Shown here: positions 38,914-51,240 of the stretch, in pieces
Numbering within the stretch: position 1 is the stretch's first letter
How the letters are laid out: each line of letters starts with the position of its first letter
Assembly (NCBI GenBank): GCA_963719505.1
Contig: CAVRCF010000003.1
Coordinates: forward strand, 128,001 to 192,000
Reading direction: 5' to 3'
DNA length: 64,000 bases
DNA from: Halobacteriovoraceae bacterium
GTDB taxonomy: Bacteria > Bdellovibrionota > Bacteriovoracia > Bacteriovoracales > Bacteriovoracaceae
Position numbers and translations under genes: made by a program
The notes under the pieces: generated by a model
Told to the model about the DNA's origin: nothing
Seen by the model: the letters and a program-made list of their open reading frames with translations, nothing else
Databases searched by the model: none

Positions 38914-40221
38914 ATGATCAAATTTTCCGTCATTCTTATTGCACTTTCGACCATTATTTATCTACAGGTAAAGCGAACAAATGAGCAGTCCATTGCCAGT
39001 TTATGTGAGCTGACAACAGATATTCGGCAATGTCCTGAAAATCTAGGAAGTCTTTTTCTTCCCCGAACATACTCTGCAAGGGCCATATATGTTGGCTTTT
39101 CTAGAGACCAAATTCATGTCGATTTCTTGTATTCCCTTATTGATGAGGTGTCTAAACTTGATGTGGCTCCCAAGGTAAATATTTTGATCCCCAGTCTAGA
39201 AGAATACGAAGCTCATAAAGTTTTAAAGAAGTACTTTGGCAAAGAGGATTATAGCTTTATCAATCTTATTCCGACAGCTTCAAAGGATGCTGTTTGGGCC
39301 CAAGACTATTTAGAAATTCTTTTTAATACCAAAACAGGACAAAGCGAGATCGTCGACTTGCCTTATTATGAAAGAGAAGGGGAGGACCTTCCTGCATCAG
39401 TAGCACTTGTGTGCCAAAAAGAGTTAAAACCTCAAGCTGAATTTACGACAGAATACAAGCCAGGAAGTGGAGATTATGGAGGAAATATAGAAGCTATTAC
39501 CACCAAGATTTTAACTGTAGGAACAAATCTCTCTGATGAAACATATAAGGTCCTAAAAAGCTTAACCTCACAGGAAATAACAGAACTTAATGTCGACTGG
39601 TTAGAGACAGGTCATGTGGATGAGTTAATTACAACACTTCCGTTTAAGAAAAATGCCGAGCCTTGTGAACAGGCCCTCCTTATCGCATCTCCAAAACTGG
39701 CATATGACACTATTGCTGCAACTCCTATAGATCTTAAAGAACAGAAAAATCCCAATAGCCCATTTTTTGATAATGAAGATGTGTGGGTTGATCATTTTCA
39801 CTGCCTCTTTAGGAAAAACTCCAAAAGATCAGATTGCTTAGAATTAGAAAAAGCAAATTTAGTGTACCAAAGTATTATTGATCAAGGTGTTGCAACTATT
39901 CAGACTCTTATTGAGAAACATCATGGATGTCGTCTCAAAGAAGAGAGATTCCCTCAACTCTTTGTCCCTTTAAAGTATAGAGATAAGTATGGAACTTTGG
40001 ACGATAGAGCAGTTTCTTTGAATCCAAATAGTGTTAATAATATTTTCTTCTTTCCCAATCTAATCTTGGCAAAGCAGTCTTTTGAACCTTTTCAAAAAAC
40101 AGTTGATAAGGTCTTACTCAACTTTCCTTTTAAAGCGATTTATATCGATGATAAGTTTGCCCACGAACTCAATGGTGGGATTCATTGTGCGACAAATATC
40201 TCCTATGGCTGTGCCCCGTAA
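38914..40221 (+). CDS. Protein-arginine deiminase (PAD) family catalytic-domain protein with signal anchor
   Basis: VWAQD, DYGGNIE, DWLETGHVDE, GGIHCATN: Asp/His-x-Asp/Cys catalytic set of PADs. Confidence 0.82.
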   Translation: MIKFSVILIALSTIIYLQVKRTNEQSIASLCELTTDIRQCPENLGSLFLPRTYSARAIYVGFSRDQIHVDFLYSLIDEVSKLDVAPKVNILIPSLEEYEAHKVLKKYFGKEDYSFINLIPTASKDAVWAQDYLEILFNTKTGQSEIVDLPYYEREGEDLPASVALVCQKELKPQAEFTTEYKPGSGDYGGNIEAITTKILTVGTNLSDETYKVLKSLTSQEITELNVDWLETGHVDELITTLPFKKNAEPCEQALLIASPKLAYDTIAATPIDLKEQKNPNSPFFDNEDVWVDHFHCLFRKNSKRSDCLELEKANLVYQSIIDQGVATIQTLIEKHHGCRLKEERFPQLFVPLKYRDKYGTLDDRAVSLNPNSVNNIFFFPNLILAKQSFEPFQKTVDKVLLNFPFKAIYIDDKFAHELNGGIHCATNISYGCAP

Positions 40222-42372: not shown

Positions 42373-44724
42373 ATGAAGATTGATAAAAAAGGACTACCTC
42401 CGGCTCTGAAAACTTTAGTCAATAGAACAGTCGCCATTTTAGGTGATGTCATCAAAGAGGAAGGCGGGGAACAAATTTTTAAAACTGTCGATTCGATAAG
42501 AAAAGAGATGGTGAAGTACAGGTCTTCACCCAATACTCAAAAAGATAAACTCCTTCAAAGTCTTTACACCCGACTTGAAAAAGAGCCAAAAGAAAATAAG
42601 CATAAGATTGCTCACTCTTACACGTTAATGTTGGAGCTTATCAATGTTTGTGAAGCAGCTTTTCGAACCTACAAGCTAAGATCACAAGAAGAGCCATTAT
42701 CTGGTTTTTCAAAACAATCCAGTACGATGGTTTATGTTTTAACCGCTCATCCAACGGAAGCCAGAACACCAGAGAACATTGAACTCTTCTCTAGGATTCA
42801 GAAGATACTTGTGGATATTTTAGAAAAAACGGCAGAACAAGACTATTTAGAGTCAATTATAAAACACAACTTAAAGATGGCTTGGTTACTTCCCGTAACG
42901 AAACATCAAAAACCTGAAGTTCTCGATGAGGCAAAGCACCTTTTTTCAATCGTTTTTAGAACTGATATTTTTGATACGCTTTTGAGGGCCGACAGAGATT
43001 TAGGAAAAATAAGAGTTCGAACTTGGGTTGGTGGCGATAAAGATGGTCATCCTGGAGTGGATGAAAAAGTAATGTTAAAATGTTTACAGGCTTCGAGAGA
43101 CTACTTTATAAAAGCTTTGGATAGCATAATAGGTAAGTTGAGGGAAGATGTTGACATGCTTGGGAATAAGCAACTAAGTCAAACTGCTCACGATCTGCCA
43201 AAGGTTTTAAAAACAATAGCAAAGATTAAACCAGCAGATTCGCAAAAGCTCTCATCACTACATCATCAATTAAATGACCTCAGCTTAGCATATGAGAAGA
43301 TCGTAGGAGCAAAGAGTCCAAGACTTTTAAAGTTAGACGCCATCTTTAATATGTTTCCAGGTCTCGTTATTCCAATTGAGATAAGAGAAGATAGCGAGGT
43401 TATCGCAGAAGCTCTAAAATCAAGTAAACCACTGGCCATTGAAAGAATGCTTGTGTCTCTGTCTCAAATTGCAAAAGGAAAAGCAATCCGTCACTATGCT
43501 CAAGGTCTTATTATAAGCATGTGTCACTCTTATAACGATATAGAGAATACAATAGAGCTAAGCAAAAAGACTATTGGAGACCTTCGTATCCCTGTTATTC
43601 CTCTTTTTGAAACATCACAAGCTTTAGAAGACTCTTCGGACATCGTCTCTCGTCTTTTAAAAAATAAAGAATACATTCGCAATGTAAAAAAGAGTTGGGA
43701 TAACAAATTAGAGGTCATGCTGGGGTATTCAGATTCCTCTAAAGGAATGGGGGTTCTGCCAAGTAGAATCGCAATTGCAAAGACTATGAGAGGACTTGAT
43801 GAGCTCATTAGTAAAAATGGGCTAACTCCTGTTTTCTTTCACGGCTCAGGGGGATCTGTTGATAGAGGTGGTGGAAGCATTAAAGAGCAAACAGCTTGGT
43901 GGCCAAAGTCAGCTCTGAGTTTATATAAGGCCACAATACAAGGTGAGATGGTTGAACGAACCTTTACCTCATCAGAGGTAACTCTCTCCGGTATCGATAA
44001 GGTTATGACTAACTTTAAAAAAGCGAAGTCGAAAAAAGGATTAATTAAAGTTAATAGAAGTGTAGAAATCTTTGCAGAGGAAGTCGCAAAAAACTACAAA
44101 AAGAAAATAGCAGAAGAAAAGTTTTTTGAGATGGTTGGGGCTGCAACACCTTACTCGTATCTCAATGTTTTAAAACTTGGATCAAGACCAACGAAAAGAG
44201 CATCTGAGAAAACTCAAACTCTAGACTTTAATTCCATAAGAGCAATTCCTTGGATATTGTGCTGGACTCAAACGAGAATACTTTTTCCATCGTGGTGGGG
44301 TGTCGGGAGTGCATGGTCTCAAATTAAAGATGACGACAAAAAGTCTAGTGCACTCAAGAAATCCTATGAAACAAGTAATCTCTTTGCTTCTTATGTGAGA
44401 ACTCTGGGGTTTACTTTGAGTAAGGTCGACCTTTCAATTTTCAAACTCTATCTGTCAAAGAGTAGGCTCTCTAAAGTTGAGCAAGAAAATGTCTTCGAGG
44501 AATTTAAGGTCGAGTACTTATTAGTTGAAAAGTTTTTAAAATCAATAACGGGTCATAAAAACCTTCTTTGGGATAAACCTTGGCTTGCCGATTCAATAAA
44601 ACTAAGGTCTTCAATGATTCATCCATTGAATGTGCTACAAATTCAGGGAAATAATGATTCTGATGAAAGTCTGGTGCGTAAAACAGTCGCGGGTATATCT
44701 TCAGGAATGATGACAACAGGTTGA
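42373..44724 (+). CDS. ppc: Phosphoenolpyruvate carboxylase, short and divergent
   Basis: VLTAHPTEA, WVGGDKDGHP, IPLFET, VMLGYSDSSK, FHGSGGSVDRGG, QGE, LGSRP, RAIPW, C-terminal GMMTTG. Confidence 0.9.
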   Translation: MKIDKKGLPPALKTLVNRTVAILGDVIKEEGGEQIFKTVDSIRKEMVKYRSSPNTQKDKLLQSLYTRLEKEPKENKHKIAHSYTLMLELINVCEAAFRTYKLRSQEEPLSGFSKQSSTMVYVLTAHPTEARTPENIELFSRIQKILVDILEKTAEQDYLESIIKHNLKMAWLLPVTKHQKPEVLDEAKHLFSIVFRTDIFDTLLRADRDLGKIRVRTWVGGDKDGHPGVDEKVMLKCLQASRDYFIKALDSIIGKLREDVDMLGNKQLSQTAHDLPKVLKTIAKIKPADSQKLSSLHHQLNDLSLAYEKIVGAKSPRLLKLDAIFNMFPGLVIPIEIREDSEVIAEALKSSKPLAIERMLVSLSQIAKGKAIRHYAQGLIISMCHSYNDIENTIELSKKTIGDLRIPVIPLFETSQALEDSSDIVSRLLKNKEYIRNVKKSWDNKLEVMLGYSDSSKGMGVLPSRIAIAKTMRGLDELISKNGLTPVFFHGSGGSVDRGGGSIKEQTAWWPKSALSLYKATIQGEMVERTFTSSEVTLSGIDKVMTNFKKAKSKKGLIKVNRSVEIFAEEVAKNYKKKIAEEKFFEMVGAATPYSYLNVLKLGSRPTKRASEKTQTLDFNSIRAIPWILCWTQTRILFPSWWGVGSAWSQIKDDDKKSSALKKSYETSNLFASYVRTLGFTLSKVDLSIFKLYLSKSRLSKVEQENVFEEFKVEYLLVEKFLKSITGHKNLLWDKPWLADSIKLRSSMIHPLNVLQIQGNNDSDESLVRKTVAGISSGMMTTG

Positions 44725-44846: not shown

Positions 44847-45077
44847 CTAATCTTCTTTTAAACCTATTTTATCATCAACATAGATGACTTTCTTTTTTAC
44901 CTTGTAGCGAAATTCATATGAAGGTCGAAAGCGTATTCTTGCGAGCCCTGGGATCGACAAACTGGCTGAACCTCTCTCCCTATAGTCTATTTGTTTTAGG
45001 TAAAACCCTTTCTTAGGAGGCTCATCTTTTGCGTATGAAGAAGTTAAACAAATTAAAATGACTAGTATTGCTTTCAT
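44847..45077 (-). CDS. Small secreted protein with one beta-hairpin module
   Basis: Signal peptide MKAILVILICLTSSYA; GFYLKQI...YEFRYK module shared with neighbours. Confidence 0.7.
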   Translation of the reverse strand: MKAILVILICLTSSYAKDEPPKKGFYLKQIDYRERGSASLSIPGLARIRFRPSYEFRYKVKKKVIYVDDKIGLKED

Positions 45078-45079
45078 AT

Positions 45080-46162
45080 TTACCTTTTGTAATGAAACTC
45101 TAAGGTCGAGGACTTCTCAACAGTTAAAACTTTAAATCCGACACCTTTATCAAGAGAGTACTTCACTCTTATTTGATGAAGGCTCAATTCTGAATTTGTA
45201 TCCGTGTAGGACTTATTATCAAAATAATGAATGATGGCTTCATTAAAGGTTCTAATGGGGTAGTAAATCTTACTTAAACTGTTAAAGTTGAGCCCAGGGA
45301 TATCAAGTCTTATATCATCTATAGCTTTCTTGTATTCAATTTGAACCCCTTTCGTAAAAGAAGAGCTAAATACAGCGAGGTCAAGACCTGCTGTTAAGGA
45401 ATGGATGGCGAAGACTCTTTCGAGACTAAATTGCTGAAAAAGATTATTACGAGCTGATAGGGCATTAAAGTTTTCCATCATTTTTTTTAATCGTTTTTGT
45501 CCAGAAGTTAGATGGTCCCCATGAGAGAGGATATATGGTCTATTTTTTACTTTAAATCTAAATCGAACTCTTTTACTTTTGCCTAAAGAGACAGCTCCTA
45601 GCGACACGCCAGTGTTGAAGGAATAATTTTTGAAAAAACCGCCCACATACCAATTTCCAATCCTTGGCATGAGAACAAGGTTACGAATTAAAAGAGATAT
45701 TTTTTGAGCATCAGAGCGCAGCACCTTAATGATTTTATTTCTTTTCCTTTTTTTTATCTTTTGGAAGTTAAGAAAATTATCTAACTCTTTATAGAGGTGA
45801 GAGTAGACTTGCTCTTGCGTCATGAGGTCAACTTCAGCATCAACTTGTTCCAAAGTAGGCTCTTCTTCGTTTATGTCATCTCCAGGGAGCCCTTCTGGTA
45901 GGTTTTTTTGCCAGACAAATTCAGCAGCGGCACCTCCAGAGAAAGAGAGTAAGCCCACATCTCCTGAAGCAGTTACTCCAACCTGCATATCAAAACGTTC
46001 TAATTCAACTTTCTCGCTGAAGAATTTAGAGAGTGAGTTTGATATTATTTTCCCGTGTGTATCGGCAACACTTCCAATTCTGTTGACGAGCATAGAGTCT
46101 CGAAAGTTATTGCTGGCCAAAGTAGTTATGGAATATAAAAGGATGAAGATGAATTTATTCAT
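45080..46162 (-). CDS. Secreted protein with four helix plus beta-hairpin modules
   Basis: Signal peptide; four ungapped 35-aa repeats ending EFVWQK, RFRFK, QIEYK, EFHYKR. Confidence 0.75.
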   Translation of the reverse strand: MNKFIFILLYSITTLASNNFRDSMLVNRIGSVADTHGKIISNSLSKFFSEKVELERFDMQVGVTASGDVGLLSFSGGAAAEFVWQKNLPEGLPGDDINEEEPTLEQVDAEVDLMTQEQVYSHLYKELDNFLNFQKIKKRKRNKIIKVLRSDAQKISLLIRNLVLMPRIGNWYVGGFFKNYSFNTGVSLGAVSLGKSKRVRFRFKVKNRPYILSHGDHLTSGQKRLKKMMENFNALSARNNLFQQFSLERVFAIHSLTAGLDLAVFSSSFTKGVQIEYKKAIDDIRLDIPGLNFNSLSKIYYPIRTFNEAIIHYFDNKSYTDTNSELSLHQIRVKYSLDKGVGFKVLTVEKSSTLEFHYKR

Positions 46163-46490
46163 AAGACTTTACCTTTAAATGATATTCTACCGCAGAGCTC
46201 GAAGATAGATTCCAACTAAAAAAGCCAACTCTGACATCGGTACTCATCCCTATAACTAAATAATCAAGATCAAAGTCTTTAGAGGGTCTTTTAAATTGTT
46301 TCTTCCTTAAAGCTCTCTTTAAAGAATTATTTAAAAAAGAGCTATAACGTTTTTCACTGATGTTTATTTTTTTAATGTTGTTTTGCTGAGACTTGGTATT
46401 TTCATGGAGCACCAGTATGGAAATTTCCTCGGCAAAGACAACTGCTGGTTGGAAAAATGATAATAGTGTCAATAATAGTAAAAGCTTCAT
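46155..46490 (-). CDS. Small secreted protein with one helix plus beta-hairpin module
   Basis: Signal peptide, GGAG RBS, DFDLDYL...VEYHLK module; 8-bp overlap with the next gene. Confidence 0.72.
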   Translation of the reverse strand: MKLLLLLTLLSFFQPAVVFAEEISILVLHENTKSQQNNIKKINISEKRYSSFLNNSLKRALRKKQFKRPSKDFDLDYLVIGMSTDVRVGFFSWNLSSSSAVEYHLKVKSYE

Positions 46491-46505
46491 ATCTACTCCA
46501 CGGAT

Positions 46506-46540
46506 AAAAAGCAGTGAAGGCTTTATTCTCCTTCACTGCT
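46506..46540 (-). terminator. Rho-independent terminator after the COG4337-like gene
   Basis: AGCAGTGAAGG-N9-CCTTCACTGCT perfect 11-bp stem with U-run on the minus strand. Confidence 0.8.
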
Positions 46541-46551
46541 GTTAAATTCTT

Positions 46552-47076
46552 TTAGCCACCGTATGGAAGCGAAGAGTCTTGAATCGTGATTTTGATGTCA
46601 TTACCTCTTTTGATAAAACCTAAAGTGTATTCCACTTTAATTTCATTACCGTCAAGTTTAGTGAAATAGTAGTGGCCCATAGCAATAGCTTTCATTCCAT
46701 AAGTTATGATATTATGGTTATCAAAACGGACATTTGTATAGGGTGCAATTGCAAAACCGTTGTCTTCAGGAAACTTTGTATTCCCACCAACAAAATATGA
46801 AAGAGCCCCTTCTACACTTGGTCTAAATGGGATTTGAGCTGCAAGAGTTGGTTTAAAAAGAACAACCCCATCGTTGTAGTCATAGAGATCAAGAATATGA
46901 TCTAAAGCTTCTTGTTTGTAATCACCCTTACTCATGAAGACATCGCCAATTCTTACGATACCAGCACCCCACTTTTCTTGTGTTTGCTTTACTTCATCAA
47001 TTGTTATTCCATATTGAGCAAAACAAGTAGCACTAAACATAAGTGTTAGTGAAAGAACTAAGTTTTTAAATTTCAT
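46552..47076 (-). CDS. Secreted COG4337-like (NTF2-fold, iota-type carbonic anhydrase-like) protein
   Basis: Signal peptide; VLFKPTLA, GALSYFVGG..FPEDNGFA, AMGHYYFT, VEYTLG; terminal QDSSLPY where the family normally has HHSSLPY. Confidence 0.7.
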   Translation of the reverse strand: MKFKNLVLSLTLMFSATCFAQYGITIDEVKQTQEKWGAGIVRIGDVFMSKGDYKQEALDHILDLYDYNDGVVLFKPTLAAQIPFRPSVEGALSYFVGGNTKFPEDNGFAIAPYTNVRFDNHNIITYGMKAIAMGHYYFTKLDGNEIKVEYTLGFIKRGNDIKITIQDSSLPYGG

Positions 47077-47491: not shown

Positions 47492-48004
47492 ATGCCGTTT
47501 TGGATGATTGTTGTAGAGTGGTCAGCACGACTTATTTTATTAATTTTGATTGGACTATCAATATGGTCGGTAGCGATAATATTAGACAGAAAAAAATACT
47601 TAAAATCTTTTGATCTTGAAAAAGAATTTCTAGATATAGAGAGACAAGCTCATAAGCTTTCAAAAGAAAATATTCAGATTGGTCTTACGAGGCACTTTTA
47701 TCAGCTTCAGATTCGATTACAAAAAGGATTAGGTGTTCTTGGAACCTTGGGGTCCACGACTCCGTTTATTGGATTGCTTGGAACTATCCTTGGTATCATT
47801 GTCGCTTTTGGTGAGTTGTCTTCCGGTAGCGGAGGAACAAATGCCATAATGTTTGCCCTAGCGGAAGCATTAATTCTAACGGCTGTGGGTTTGTTTGTCG
47901 CTATCCCAGCTGTTATAGCTTTTAATATCTTCTCTAAAAAATCGAAACATCTTATCTCTGATCTTCAAAGTAGACTTGATGAGTTTGTGGCAAGGGAGAA
48001 ATAG
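47492..48004 (+). CDS. exbB: MotA/TolQ/ExbB proton channel
   Basis: LGTLGSTTPFIGLLGTILGI, AEALILTAVGLFVAIPA; short cytoplasmic loop. Confidence 0.88.
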   Translation: MPFWMIVVEWSARLILLILIGLSIWSVAIILDRKKYLKSFDLEKEFLDIERQAHKLSKENIQIGLTRHFYQLQIRLQKGLGVLGTLGSTTPFIGLLGTILGIIVAFGELSSGSGGTNAIMFALAEALILTAVGLFVAIPAVIAFNIFSKKSKHLISDLQSRLDEFVAREK

Positions 48005-48421
48005 ATGGCTTCAAGTTTTGATCCCAATGAAAGCGATGGAATAAACGAAATCAATATCACGCCATTCGTTGATGTTGTTCTTGTTCTTCTTGTGATCTTT
48101 ATGGTTACTGCTCCTATGATGGTTAAAGAGACGATGAATATCAAGCTTCCAAAAGGCAAGAGTACCCAAAAAAGTGAAATAAAAACTTTTGCCGTGGCTA
48201 TCTCAAAAAATGGTCAGGTCCTTTTTGACGGTGAAATTATAGAAATGAGTCTTCTTTATGATAAAGCTGTCAGGCTAAAAAATGAAAACCCCGAAATTCA
48301 ACTTCTTATCTCAGCCGATAAAGAAGCTATGCACGGAGAGGTGATAAAAGTTTTAGATCAAGTTAAACTCGCCGGAGTTACAAATTTCGCCTTTCAAATT
48401 GAAAAAATCATAGAGCAGTAG
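48005..48421 (+). CDS. exbD: Biopolymer transporter ExbD
   Basis: EINITPFVDVVLVLLVIFMVTAP, ISADK. Confidence 0.92.
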   Translation: MASSFDPNESDGINEINITPFVDVVLVLLVIFMVTAPMMVKETMNIKLPKGKSTQKSEIKTFAVAISKNGQVLFDGEIIEMSLLYDKAVRLKNENPEIQLLISADKEAMHGEVIKVLDQVKLAGVTNFAFQIEKIIEQ

Positions 48422-48422
48422 A

Positions 48423-49058
48423 ATGAATAAGACTCTATCTCAATCTCTTCTTCTTCACAGTTTCTTTGTCATTGTATTCTTCGTTCTAATGCAGATGAGT
48501 GAAAGAAAGGTGATTGAAACTTTCAGCTTCGATATTGTTGAAAAGCAAGCTGTCGAAATTAAAAGAAACCAAAAAGTTGTTATCAATGCCAAGCCTTCTG
48601 AAGTTATTAAACGGAAAGAGGCCCCAAAAACTAGAGAAGTCTTCGGAGTAAAGAGAAAGACTCTGACCAGTGAGAAGGGAAGCGTTGTTGCAAAGGTTGG
48701 GAATACTGTGACAAAGAAAGAAGACGATAAAGTCTTACGTGATGATGAATCAGACTCACTACCTGAACCAGCAGAAGAATTTCTTATCACCTCTATGCCC
48801 AGAGCAATAAATGAAATCAGACCCGTCTATCCCAAATGGGCAAAAGAGCAGAAAATATCGGGTTCTGTTATATTTGAAATTTTAATTGATCAAAAGGGAG
48901 ACGTAAGACAAGCAAAGATATTGCGTGGCCTTCATCCTAAATTAGATAAACTAGCAAAAGATGCGATAATGAAATTTAAATTTAAGCCGGCATTTATAGA
49001 AAAAAAACCGGCACCAGCGAGAATAAAATATGCGATTAAATATTTACTTGAGTCTTAG
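48423..49058 (+). CDS. tonB: Energy transducer TonB
   Basis: N-terminal TM with SLLLH; C-terminal PVYP..A....ISG.V...ILID..G.V, FKPA. Confidence 0.9.
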   Translation: MNKTLSQSLLLHSFFVIVFFVLMQMSERKVIETFSFDIVEKQAVEIKRNQKVVINAKPSEVIKRKEAPKTREVFGVKRKTLTSEKGSVVAKVGNTVTKKEDDKVLRDDESDSLPEPAEEFLITSMPRAINEIRPVYPKWAKEQKISGSVIFEILIDQKGDVRQAKILRGLHPKLDKLAKDAIMKFKFKPAFIEKKPAPARIKYAIKYLLES

Positions 49059-51240
49059 TCTCTTTCTCATAGGCACTTGTTATGCACAAACAGCAATTAA
49101 AGGTATCCTTTTGGAAAAGGGAACAAAGGCTGTTCTTGCAGATACGAATGTCTATATTATGCCTTACAAACTAAAGGCGACCACAGATACCCAAGGGAAA
49201 TTTTTCTTCCCCGATGTCCCAAAAGGGGACTTTGAGTTTCTTGTTAATAAAAGCGGATATCTTAGACTAACTGTCGAATCAAGTACTAGTGACCTCAACT
49301 CAGATCTATATTTAGAAAAAGAATTCTACGATGTTTTTGAGACAGTTGTTACTGGTAAAGAGATCAAAAAAGATATCGCTAAAAAAAGTCTTTCTCAAAA
49401 AGACTTTTTAAAAGCTCCAGGAGCTCAAGAAGATCCAGTTCGAGCTGTGCAGAATTTACCAGGGGTAGCGAACCAAACCTTTAGCTCTCAGATTGTCATC
49501 CAAGGAAGTGAACCTGATGATACTCGCTATACTATCAACGGGCATGAAATCCCTTTAATTTTTCACTTTGGTGGACTAACTTCAGTTGTAACTCCTACTG
49601 CAGTAAAAGATGTTGAGTTTTTGGCAGCTGGCTTTGGACCCGAATATGGGCGAGCGCTCGGTGGTATTATTAACCTCAATACCAGACAAGCTAGAACTGA
49701 CCGATGGCGTGGTGAAGGTTTTGTTGATATCACAAAGCTTGGAGCTTTAACAGAAGGTCCGCTGTCTGAGAAGTCGTCTCTTGTGGCCAGTGCCAGGATA
49801 AGTTATTTTGGGAAAATCTTTGAAAAGGTTGCCGAAGAGATGGATGACTTTGCTGTAACAGCGGCTCCAGAATTTCAAGATTATTACGTCAACTATGATT
49901 ACGATATCTCAAAAGATGAAAGATTTTCTCTCATCGCTCTGTCTAGTAAAGACACCTTAGAGCTCATTATTAAAGAGGGAGACAACCCTAATATAGAAGG
50001 AGATATATCGAATGAAACAACTTTTAGTCGAGTTATTCCACGGTATATAAGACGCATCAATGACAAGACAAAATTGGATGTTTCCCTCGCTGTTGGTAAG
50101 GATAATTTAAACTTCTCCTTGGGAGATCGATTTTTTGATTTAGATGCAACTACCGTGACACAAAGAGGTGAAGTTGAGTATAAGTATAGTGACAAACTTA
50201 CCAACTATTTCGGAACAGATATTCAGTGGAGAAAATTTGAGTTAGATTTACTTCTGCCAAGTCGCTCCAGTGGTGGAGGAGTCAATACTGCGGGAAGCAC
50301 TTCCACATTTGCTCGAATTGAAGATGAAAATACTGAGTCGGCAATCTACCTGAGAAATATTTATAAGTTTAATGAAAAGCTTACGCTTTCACCAAATCTT
50401 AGAGCAGAATACTTCTCGACCACTGAAGACTCCTATCTTATGCCTCGTTTGAACGCAACCTACGCTTTGAGTCCGTCTTTATCTTTGAACTTTGCAACGG
50501 GTCTTTATTATCAAGCACCACAAAATGGTGAAAATAGTGAAGACTTTGGAAACCCAGATGTTAAAGCTGAAAAAGCCACTCATTATCTTTTTTCTGTGGT
50601 TAAAGATTTTAGAGGGGGCTCTAACAAAGGGTTAACTATTGATGTAGGAGCTTTCTATAAGGAGCTCGATGATTTAATTGTCTCAACAAGCGAGAAGCGC
50701 TCGGATGGGACAAGCATAAGAAATGATAACGGTGGAGAAGGCTCGGTTCAAGGCGTCCAATTTCAAGGAAGTTATAAAATTGCAGAATACACTTTGCTTA
50801 CGTCCTACACCTACCTTAACTCTAGAAGAAAAGATCCTGAAAGCGGAGAGTACCCATCACAATTTGATCAAACTCATAATCTTAACCTTATTGGGATTTA
50901 TGAGCGCTCTCGCTGGTCTTTTTCTACACGAGTTCGTTTTGTCTCTGGTGGTCCCTATACTCCGATTGAGGGAAGCATCTATGATAGTGATGTTGACGTT
51001 TATCTACCAACGAGAGGATCGTTCTATTCACAGAGATTTGATGACTTTTTCCAACTCGATTTCAGAGTCGATAGAAAGTTTATTTATCAGACTTGGATTC
51101 TCTCAGCTTATCTTGATATACAAAATCTAACCAATGCAAATAACGGTCAAGGGATCTCTTACAGCTATGATTACAGTCAAAGTGAAAAAGCCGCAGGGAC
51201 ACCAATCTTACCAATAATCGGCCTAAGAGGAGAGTTTTAG
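49030..51240 (+). CDS. TonB-dependent receptor with N-terminal carboxypeptidase-regulatory-like domain
   Basis: Signal peptide, ETVVTG TonB box, DPVRAVQNLPGV plug, YGRALGGIIN, GNPDVKAE, C-terminal GLRGEF. Confidence 0.92.
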   Translation: MRLNIYLSLSLFLIGTCYAQTAIKGILLEKGTKAVLADTNVYIMPYKLKATTDTQGKFFFPDVPKGDFEFLVNKSGYLRLTVESSTSDLNSDLYLEKEFYDVFETVVTGKEIKKDIAKKSLSQKDFLKAPGAQEDPVRAVQNLPGVANQTFSSQIVIQGSEPDDTRYTINGHEIPLIFHFGGLTSVVTPTAVKDVEFLAAGFGPEYGRALGGIINLNTRQARTDRWRGEGFVDITKLGALTEGPLSEKSSLVASARISYFGKIFEKVAEEMDDFAVTAAPEFQDYYVNYDYDISKDERFSLIALSSKDTLELIIKEGDNPNIEGDISNETTFSRVIPRYIRRINDKTKLDVSLAVGKDNLNFSLGDRFFDLDATTVTQRGEVEYKYSDKLTNYFGTDIQWRKFELDLLLPSRSSGGGVNTAGSTSTFARIEDENTESAIYLRNIYKFNEKLTLSPNLRAEYFSTTEDSYLMPRLNATYALSPSLSLNFATGLYYQAPQNGENSEDFGNPDVKAEKATHYLFSVVKDFRGGSNKGLTIDVGAFYKELDDLIVSTSEKRSDGTSIRNDNGGEGSVQGVQFQGSYKIAEYTLLTSYTYLNSRRKDPESGEYPSQFDQTHNLNLIGIYERSRWSFSTRVRFVSGGPYTPIEGSIYDSDVDVYLPTRGSFYSQRFDDFFQLDFRVDRKFIYQTWILSAYLDIQNLTNANNGQGISYSYDYSQSEKAAGTPILPIIGLRGEF

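Follow-up and report, generated by a model that had tools for sequence, protein, structure and literature searches.

In a 64,000-nt stretch of DNA from a Halobacteriovoraceae bacterium (assembly GCA_963719505.1, contig CAVRCF010000003.1, positions 128,001-192,000, forward strand; hereafter the window), three adjacent genes, named here A, B and C, encode proteins with signal-peptide-like N-termini that carry copies of one amphipathic β-hairpin of about 35 residues. The copies are laid out as 1+4+1 over A, B and C. Profile comparisons, together with shuffled and reversed controls, show at the level of sequence that all six are homologous, and the module is, by its sequence relationships, a divergent branch of the Pepco superfamily. 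In our preferred reading, to which we give about an even chance, the three proteins would form an exported heteromeric Pepco-type composite barrel or pore.

An earlier reading of the same DNA, made from the letters alone (the sequence-only reading), had described three overlapping or abutting open reading frames (ORFs). Their coordinates proved exact, and all three lie on the minus strand, with the following features (positions are those of the window):

46155..46490, minus strand: gene A, an ORF of 111 aa with a signal peptide, a basic amphipathic helix and one C-terminal hairpin module
46431..46490, minus strand: signal peptide of A, residues 1-20, a hydrophobic N-terminus after Lys; cleavage site predicted from the sequence
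46299..46355, minus strand: amphipathic helix of A, about residues 46-64, hydrophobic moment (muH) 0.47, net charge +6; aligns with the helix of B module 4
46173..46277, minus strand: hairpin module of A, residues 72-106, located by self-scan, hhalign, a module hidden Markov model (HMM) and the hydropathy pattern
45080..46162, minus strand: gene B, an ORF of 360 aa with a signal peptide and four tandem helix+hairpin Pepco-like modules
45908..46012, minus strand: B hairpin 1, residues 51-85, from AlphaFold2 (AF2), hhalign and the module HMM; the segment matching Pfam Pepco
45551..45655, minus strand: B hairpin 2, residues 170-204, from AF2, hhalign and the module HMM
45329..45433, minus strand: B hairpin 3, residues 244-278, from AF2, hhalign and the module HMM
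45086..45190, minus strand: B hairpin 4, residues 325-359, from self-scan, AF2, hhalign and the module HMM; nearest to the A hairpin
44847..45077, minus strand: gene C, an ORF of 76 aa with a signal peptide, one hairpin without a preceding helix and a charged 17-aa tail
44901..45008, minus strand: C hairpin, residues 24-59, from hhalign, weakly to B4 directly and otherwise via intermediates
44850..44900, minus strand: charged C-terminal tail of C, residues 60-76, from family alignments; missing in natural B-C fusions

The stop of A overlaps the start of B by 8 nt, and the ATG of C lies 2 nt past the stop of B. An inverted repeat follows C, and a stem-loop of about 11 bp with a T-run occupies the 61-nt gap (46491-46551, minus strand) between A and a carbonic-anhydrase-like gene. 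Because the ORFs overlap or abut, with the inverted repeat after C and the stem-loop before A, the A-B-C unit looks like a tightly coupled three-gene operon. The stem-loop itself resembles a terminator or an attenuator; it is unlisted by the consensus scan, probably through its loop length.

The repeat was recovered de novo by an ungapped 35-aa self-scan, which placed modules at A72, B51/54, B170, B244, B325 and, weakly, C~24-29. With the mature proteins as input, the top pair, A against B4, scored 47 and exceeded 200 of 200 residue shuffles, and the pairs ranked 2-6 were equalled by 0-3 of 200 shuffles. For profile comparisons with hhalign we used an alignment of B with 12 rows (A1, from the 11 homologues found, 36-69% identical) and family alignments of A (n=9), close C (n=7), distant C-like (n=15) and distant A-like proteins (n=19). 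The modules of B aligned in register with P=4.6e-6 for B3-B4, 4.4e-5 for B2-B4, 8.6e-5 for B2-B3, 1.4e-3 for B1-B4, 0.043 for B1-B2 and 0.1 for B1-B3. The A family matched B4 with P=1.2e-8 across 56 columns that span both helix and hairpin. Close C compared directly with B4 gave P=0.009 only, and it is bridged by intermediates: close C matches the distant C-like proteins with P=8.1e-10, and these in turn match the distant A-like proteins with 5.6e-9 and B4 with 9.9e-6.

As controls, six pairs were compared with 25 column-shuffled profiles and a reversed profile each. All six scored above 25/25 shuffles and the reversed profile, with narrow margins for C-B4 (17.5 against a shuffle maximum of 15.7) and B1-B4 (20.1 against 16.6 reversed). 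A module HMM seeded without C found one match in A and four in B (i-E 4e-9 to 8e-13 in B) and 0 matches among ~488 unrelated ORFs of the fetched loci. One alternating hydrophobic/polar pattern is common to all six copies. An amphipathic helix precedes five of them, namely the A hairpin and the four B hairpins, and the helices of B have muH values of 0.42-0.50 and are mostly basic; the C hairpin has no such helix. The sequence-only reading had claimed both six copies of one hairpin over the three proteins and a helix before five of them, and both claims are borne out, with C as the weakest copy.

An AF2 model of B alone, computed from the 12-row alignment (pLDDT 71, pTM 0.74), shows four units, each an amphipathic helix followed by a long hairpin, so that B consists of 8 long strands interrupted by helices. 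The strands are 10-17 residues long and alternate between hydrophobic and polar residues. In fold searches with this model no solved structure was matched and no known barrel or pore fold; a PDB sequence search with the B profile gave 0 matches, and the best ESM Atlas score, 0.83, was uninformative.

The sequence-only reading had also noted that the helix and long hairpin resemble the Trypco1/Pepco modules of bacterial conflict systems. Pepco (=Trypco1/Trypco2; PF24393/PF19493) was named for its linkage to trypsin-type peptidases in such systems (Kaur et al. 2020, PMC7159879). Pepco PF24393 was the sole Pfam suggestion for the window proteins, over B residues 49-80 (16.7 bits, E 0.011; the gathering cut-off of the family is 27 bits). 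We searched 1.84 billion cluster representatives with the B profile (A1) and obtained 163 clusters at E<=1e-3 and 38 at E<=1e-30. Among 32 more distant or longer representatives, 28 match Pepco at E<=0.01 and 15 reach at least 27 bits, the best scoring 52.4 bits; two of the 32 also match Trypco1 weakly. Representative P0049 exemplifies the bridge: the B profile matches it with E=9.3e-20, and its Pepco score is 49.2 bits. In close relatives Pepco is the only Pfam family matched (8/35 at E<=0.01), and it is the main family in distant B-like proteins of the same family of bacteria (10/19 at E<=0.01, best 3.5e-14). A search of the window's own genome with the Pepco family gave none over the cut-off, the best being B itself with 17 bits, and A, B and C had no NCBIfam match. 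Since Pepco is matched in distant and close relatives that are linked to B by profile, the module is, at the sequence level, a divergent branch of the Pepco superfamily, and the window proteins are divergent relatives rather than formal members. The likeness seen in the sequence-only reading is thus one of real homology, established via relatives that pass the Pfam cut-off.

What a Pepco domain does has been described for SsPepco-SsAvs4 of Streptomyces subrutilus (Evans et al. 2025, bioRxiv 10.1101/2025.11.14.688446). In that preprint, a 117-aa Pepco forms heat- and SDS-resistant 9-10-mer β-barrels with a hydrophobic exterior and a charged lumen, which act as a pore. A basal amphipathic helix is required for toxicity, and the pore is activated in phage defence once the linked protease cuts off a charged C-terminal tail behind a conserved Ile. 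From the assays reported there, we infer that canonical Pepco acts in the cytoplasm. As Pepco has been shown there to form 9-10-mer barrel pores, a hairpin-built barrel is the expected behaviour of the module.

Several features of the window proteins agree with these descriptions. The unit in A and B is likewise an amphipathic helix with a long amphipathic hairpin, and the hydrophobic/polar alternation is in keeping with a barrel whose outside is hydrophobic; mature A, of ~91 aa with helix and hairpin, fits the form of a single small Pepco protein, and in C the hairpin is followed by a charged tail. This tail has 17 residues, 9 of them charged, and by our reading of the alignments a short basic run followed by I/V residues is kept among close relatives; it may have a regulatory role. 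The differences are equally clear. Canonical Pepco is a single homo-oligomerising domain of ~117 aa encoded beside a trypsin or caspase sensor protease, whereas here B fuses four modules, two more reside on small chains, C is a hairpin and tail without helix, and no protease partner was found. In addition, export signals are seen on all three chains, lipoproteins are frequent among the A-like subunits, and the cassette forms a self-contained unit in Bacteriovoracia.

We then consider how the cassette is distributed and arranged in other genomes. Counts refer to places found in the genomes searched, which were samples within the phylum Bdellovibrionota. The B profile was found in 21/101 sampled genomes of the window's family, and in 23/301 sampled genomes of the phylum (16/67 of the same family and 6 genomes in four other families). 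In several genomes the profile matches two or three places, whose sequences are divergent. The records of relatives name Bacteriovoracia, including metagenome-assembled genomes of Bacteriovoracaceae and Halobacteriovoraceae; in viral contigs no close-family relative was found. Homologue searches started from A and C returned just 2 and 1 relatives, respectively.

An A-like gene lies directly upstream in 27/28 distinct B-like loci, the exception being at a contig end. A separate C-like gene lies directly downstream of B in 21/28 loci, and the C hairpin is fused to B in 4/28; the other 3/28 comprise one contig cut, one short B and one locus without recognisable C. A further metagenome fragment has B followed by C. 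The three genes were to be looked for together elsewhere under the sequence-only reading, and the A-B-C order does recur in B-like loci. Among the representative clusters, B-C fusions occur in 7 (i-E 1e-14 to 1e-4), with independent ones in the distant clade L020/L023 (i-E 2e-12); in these fusions the C hairpin sits at the C-terminus of the B-like protein. There is also one A-B fusion, representative P0046, which has no internal signal peptide (i-E 1.2e-5). The natural A-B and B-C fusions fix the order of the modules as A, B1-B4, C. In close and distant clades alike, the module count of the large subunit is exactly four (P 3.3e-8 to 7.4e-5, against 0.59 for a fifth match). By these sequence comparisons, both this order and the 1+4+1 layout are conserved down to ~20% identity.

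The A-like and B-like proteins of loci L009-L030 also show short conserved segments just past the signal peptide. The B-like proteins have a Pro-x-Ser/Asp-Trp motif and the distant A-like proteins an Ile-Pro-x-Ile-Gly-Leu-Asp-x-x-Gly strand, both missing from A, B and C of the window, and many distant C-like proteins end in a Pro-x-Gly-Tyr...Tyr-Lys-Pro tail.

Export signals accompany the cassette. By our own heuristic, which was used for signal peptides and lipoboxes throughout, signal-peptide-like N-termini are present in 27/28 A-like, 21/22 C-like and 27/29 B-like proteins of the loci, and 8/28 A-like proteins bear a lipobox. The signal peptides that the sequence-only reading assigned to all three window proteins are therefore seen again by heuristic and conserved in relatives. 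The window's own genome holds two cassettes. The second (locus L002, 1180-2657, minus strand) consists of a 93-aa A-like gene overlapping a natural B-C fusion of 399 aa, and is flanked by a gene for an APP1-type phosphatidate phosphatase and by an ORF of 306 aa without Pfam match. A look for sequencing runs and RNA data returned none.

In the assembly that we propose, six Pepco-type protomer equivalents, each a helix with a long amphipathic hairpin, would be shared out 1+4+1 among three genes that are coupled in translation. Once exported by Sec, the hairpins would pair laterally, from A through B1-B4 to C, into a composite β-barrel with a hydrophobic exterior, a polar lumen and basic amphipathic helices at its base, on the pattern of the homo-oligomeric Pepco barrel. 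B would stand for four protomers in one chain, while A would add a fifth and C a sixth, which has no helix and bears the sole post-hairpin tail. Such concatenation would be topologically simple, because in the Pepco ring each hairpin ends at the base beside the helix of the next protomer. One A:B:C set would yield 12 strands; larger assemblies are possible, for example A:B2:C with 10 hairpins, which equals the native Pepco ring size.

We infer co-assembly from the homology of the modules, the export signals, the coupling of the genes, the conserved order and count, the serial fusions and the behaviour of canonical Pepco; barrel closure, stoichiometry, membrane and pore activity would follow by the same kind of deduction. 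The idea put forward in the sequence-only reading, that the subunits contribute hairpins to one barrel, stands in part: co-assembly is backed by the conserved A-B-C order and the A-B and B-C fusions, and a barrel is what homology to Pepco leads one to expect. Most likely, the proteins would form a cell-envelope channel or pore. As roughly one cassette in four has a lipoprotein as its A subunit, we lean towards the producer's outer membrane as its site.

A number of observations weigh against this composite barrel. The window proteins stay below the Pfam cut-off for Pepco, A and C have no match to it, and 0/45 small A-like and C-like proteins match Pepco at E<=0.05 in Pfam. C is tied to the other modules indirectly, through natural fusions and intermediates; it is missed by the module HMM seeded without it, which matches 1/20 C-like and 9/25 A-like proteins. 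The export signals come from our own heuristic and not from SignalP. For the B-C fusion from the window's own genome, the AF2 model is of low confidence (pLDDT 45), and its secondary structure alone was used. Outer-membrane proteins assembled by BAM typically end in an aromatic residue, the β-signal, and A, B and C all have a non-aromatic last residue. Finally, alternating amphipathic strands and amphipathic helices are equally compatible with a soluble α/β protein.

The last point leads to the main rival, in which the proteins are not a pore at all but a soluble or peripheral periplasmic α/β repeat protein, with a sheet of hairpins packed on the amphipathic helices. We regard it as rather unlikely. 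Such a protein would act as a scaffold of the envelope, bind lipids or ligands or work like a chaperone, with chains that may or may not interact. AF2 does fold B into a defined arrangement without partners (pTM 0.74), no known barrel or pore fold was matched, and the terminal aromatic β-signal is not present, all of which would suit such a protein. Against this stand the homology to a proven barrel-building module, and strands of 14-17 residues with strict hydrophobic/polar alternation. The fixed 1+4+1 count and the serial-hairpin fusions are also hard to square with independent soluble proteins.

A second rival keeps the composite barrel and differs in the target membrane alone: the barrel would be released or presented at predator-prey contact and would permeabilise the membrane of the prey. 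Cultured members of Bacteriovoracia, Bacteriovoracaceae and Halobacteriovoraceae, the taxa named in the records of the relatives, are predators. The distribution is patchy (21/101 genomes in the family sample, 23/301 in that of the phylum), up to 3 divergent places occur per genome, as is usual for conflict genes, and in its canonical form Pepco is a pore that kills. The exported 1+4+1 set could then be a Pepco suicide pore turned outward, which without protease trigger would insert a small hetero-oligomeric barrel into prey membranes, with paralogues for different prey. We consider this specific scenario rather improbable, and the prey-directed weapon in general rather unlikely as well. The lipobox on 8/28 A-like subunits argues for retention in the producer's envelope; signals are of the Sec type only, and no secretion-system gene was linked to the cassette within 50 flanking ORFs. 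Moreover, roughly three in four of the family genomes searched gave no match to the cassette, so that it is not core predation machinery.

Homology to Pepco also raises the question of a canonical Pepco-protease defence module, that is, a pore kept latent in the cytoplasm until a sensor-linked trypsin or caspase cleaves it. The charged tail found only on C is a loose echo of the tail that is cut from Pepco, but it is missing from natural B-C fusions. The sequence-only reading had remarked that no protease adjoins the genes, and this is confirmed: no trypsin, caspase or STAND gene is found in the window neighbourhood of the cassette, nor among the 50 flanking ORFs of 26 loci, which hold varied housekeeping genes instead. 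The flanks also hold a Peptidase_C92 amidase gene in one genus pair and, once, an Rce1-like gene. PADLOC returned 0 matches, and all three proteins carry export signals. This explanation is already contradicted and we hold it to be highly improbable; with no protease partner and a location outside the cytoplasm, the cassette is not the phage-defence module. A chance or compositional likeness of amphipathic hairpins without common origin, which could appeal to the weak direct comparisons of C-B4 and of B1-B2/B1-B3 (P 0.009-0.1) and to the failure of the simple module HMM on C, is scarcely credible and already contradicted for A and B1-B4, because the shuffled and reversed-profile controls were exceeded in all six pairs and the single-sequence shuffles too, the module HMM had no match among the unrelated ORFs, and the A-B4 alignment extends over the helix.

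Upstream of A, the window encodes a secreted protein of 174 aa:

46552..47076, minus strand: iota-carbonic-anhydrase-like gene, secreted product (NF047901 2e-28, 99 bits, below its 350-bit cut-off; PDB 7c5v 4.7e-24)

The same gene lies directly upstream of A in three close loci (L004, L005, L008) as well as in the window. We considered its product as a fourth subunit and set it aside: the gene accompanies the close clade only, the stem-loop separates it from A, and it is missing at the paralogue and at distant cassettes. The protein is probably not a subunit. On the other side of the cassette, and convergent with it, lies a gene for phosphoenolpyruvate (PEP) carboxylase, which uses bicarbonate (42373-44724, plus strand). 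Divergent from the cassette lies an ExbB-ExbD-TonB operon, and after it a gene for a TonB-dependent receptor that has a CarboxypepD_reg-like domain at its N-terminus (47492-51240, plus strand). The window also encodes, at 38914-40221 (plus strand), a protein of 435 aa whose N-terminus is hydrophobic and which contains a protein-arginine deiminase (PAD) domain (E 2.2e-12), a family uncommon in bacteria.

Barrels built from several chains are known in other settings. In leukocidin and γ-haemolysin, adjacent genes encode homologous secreted subunits that each contribute one hairpin to a mixed barrel and that bear large cap and rim domains. The window cassette shares the adjacent genes for homologous secreted hairpin-bearing subunits; it differs in that B supplies four hairpins and in having no Pfam match but Pepco, and no leukocidin or haemolysin fold was found by Pfam or structure. 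The signs of a BAM-dependent monomeric barrel were not found either, as there is neither an aromatic C-terminus nor a Pfam match to an outer-membrane protein. Composite outer-membrane barrels such as TolC (3x4 strands) and CsgG (9x4 strands), the latter a lipoprotein, are homo-oligomers of larger protomers. The proposed envelope barrel would resemble them in having a wall made from several chains, and some A-like subunits are lipoproteins, as is CsgG; it differs from them and from PopA in that no homology was detected and that those proteins are homo-oligomers of larger protomers. PopA of Bdellovibrio is an unusual oligomeric outer-membrane protein that reportedly enters the inner membrane of the prey and is a pentamer of porin-like barrels and not a hairpin ring (Parr et al. 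2025, PMC12228718).

The Pepco module is known, and what is new is its exported, fused, three-chain, protease-free architecture in predatory bacteria. Full-text literature searches led to a single functional study of Pepco and to none on signal-peptide-bearing or multi-module forms, although the supplementary figures of the preprint on SsPepco (10.1101/2025.11.14.688446) might show some. Few protease-linked defence effectors are as abundant as Pepco, whose nature as a pore was shown only in 2025. If the composite barrel is real, the Pepco module would be a general unit for building barrels, which can be strung together in one chain or spread over several, and the cassette would offer a natural 'single-chain' form useful for structural work on Pepco barrels. 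Should the barrel be directed against prey, it would be a bacterial counterpart of the membrane-attack complex. For Bacteriovoracia, a composite barrel would provide a candidate envelope or prey-directed pore, and would thus bear on how predators breach or tap the membranes of their prey.

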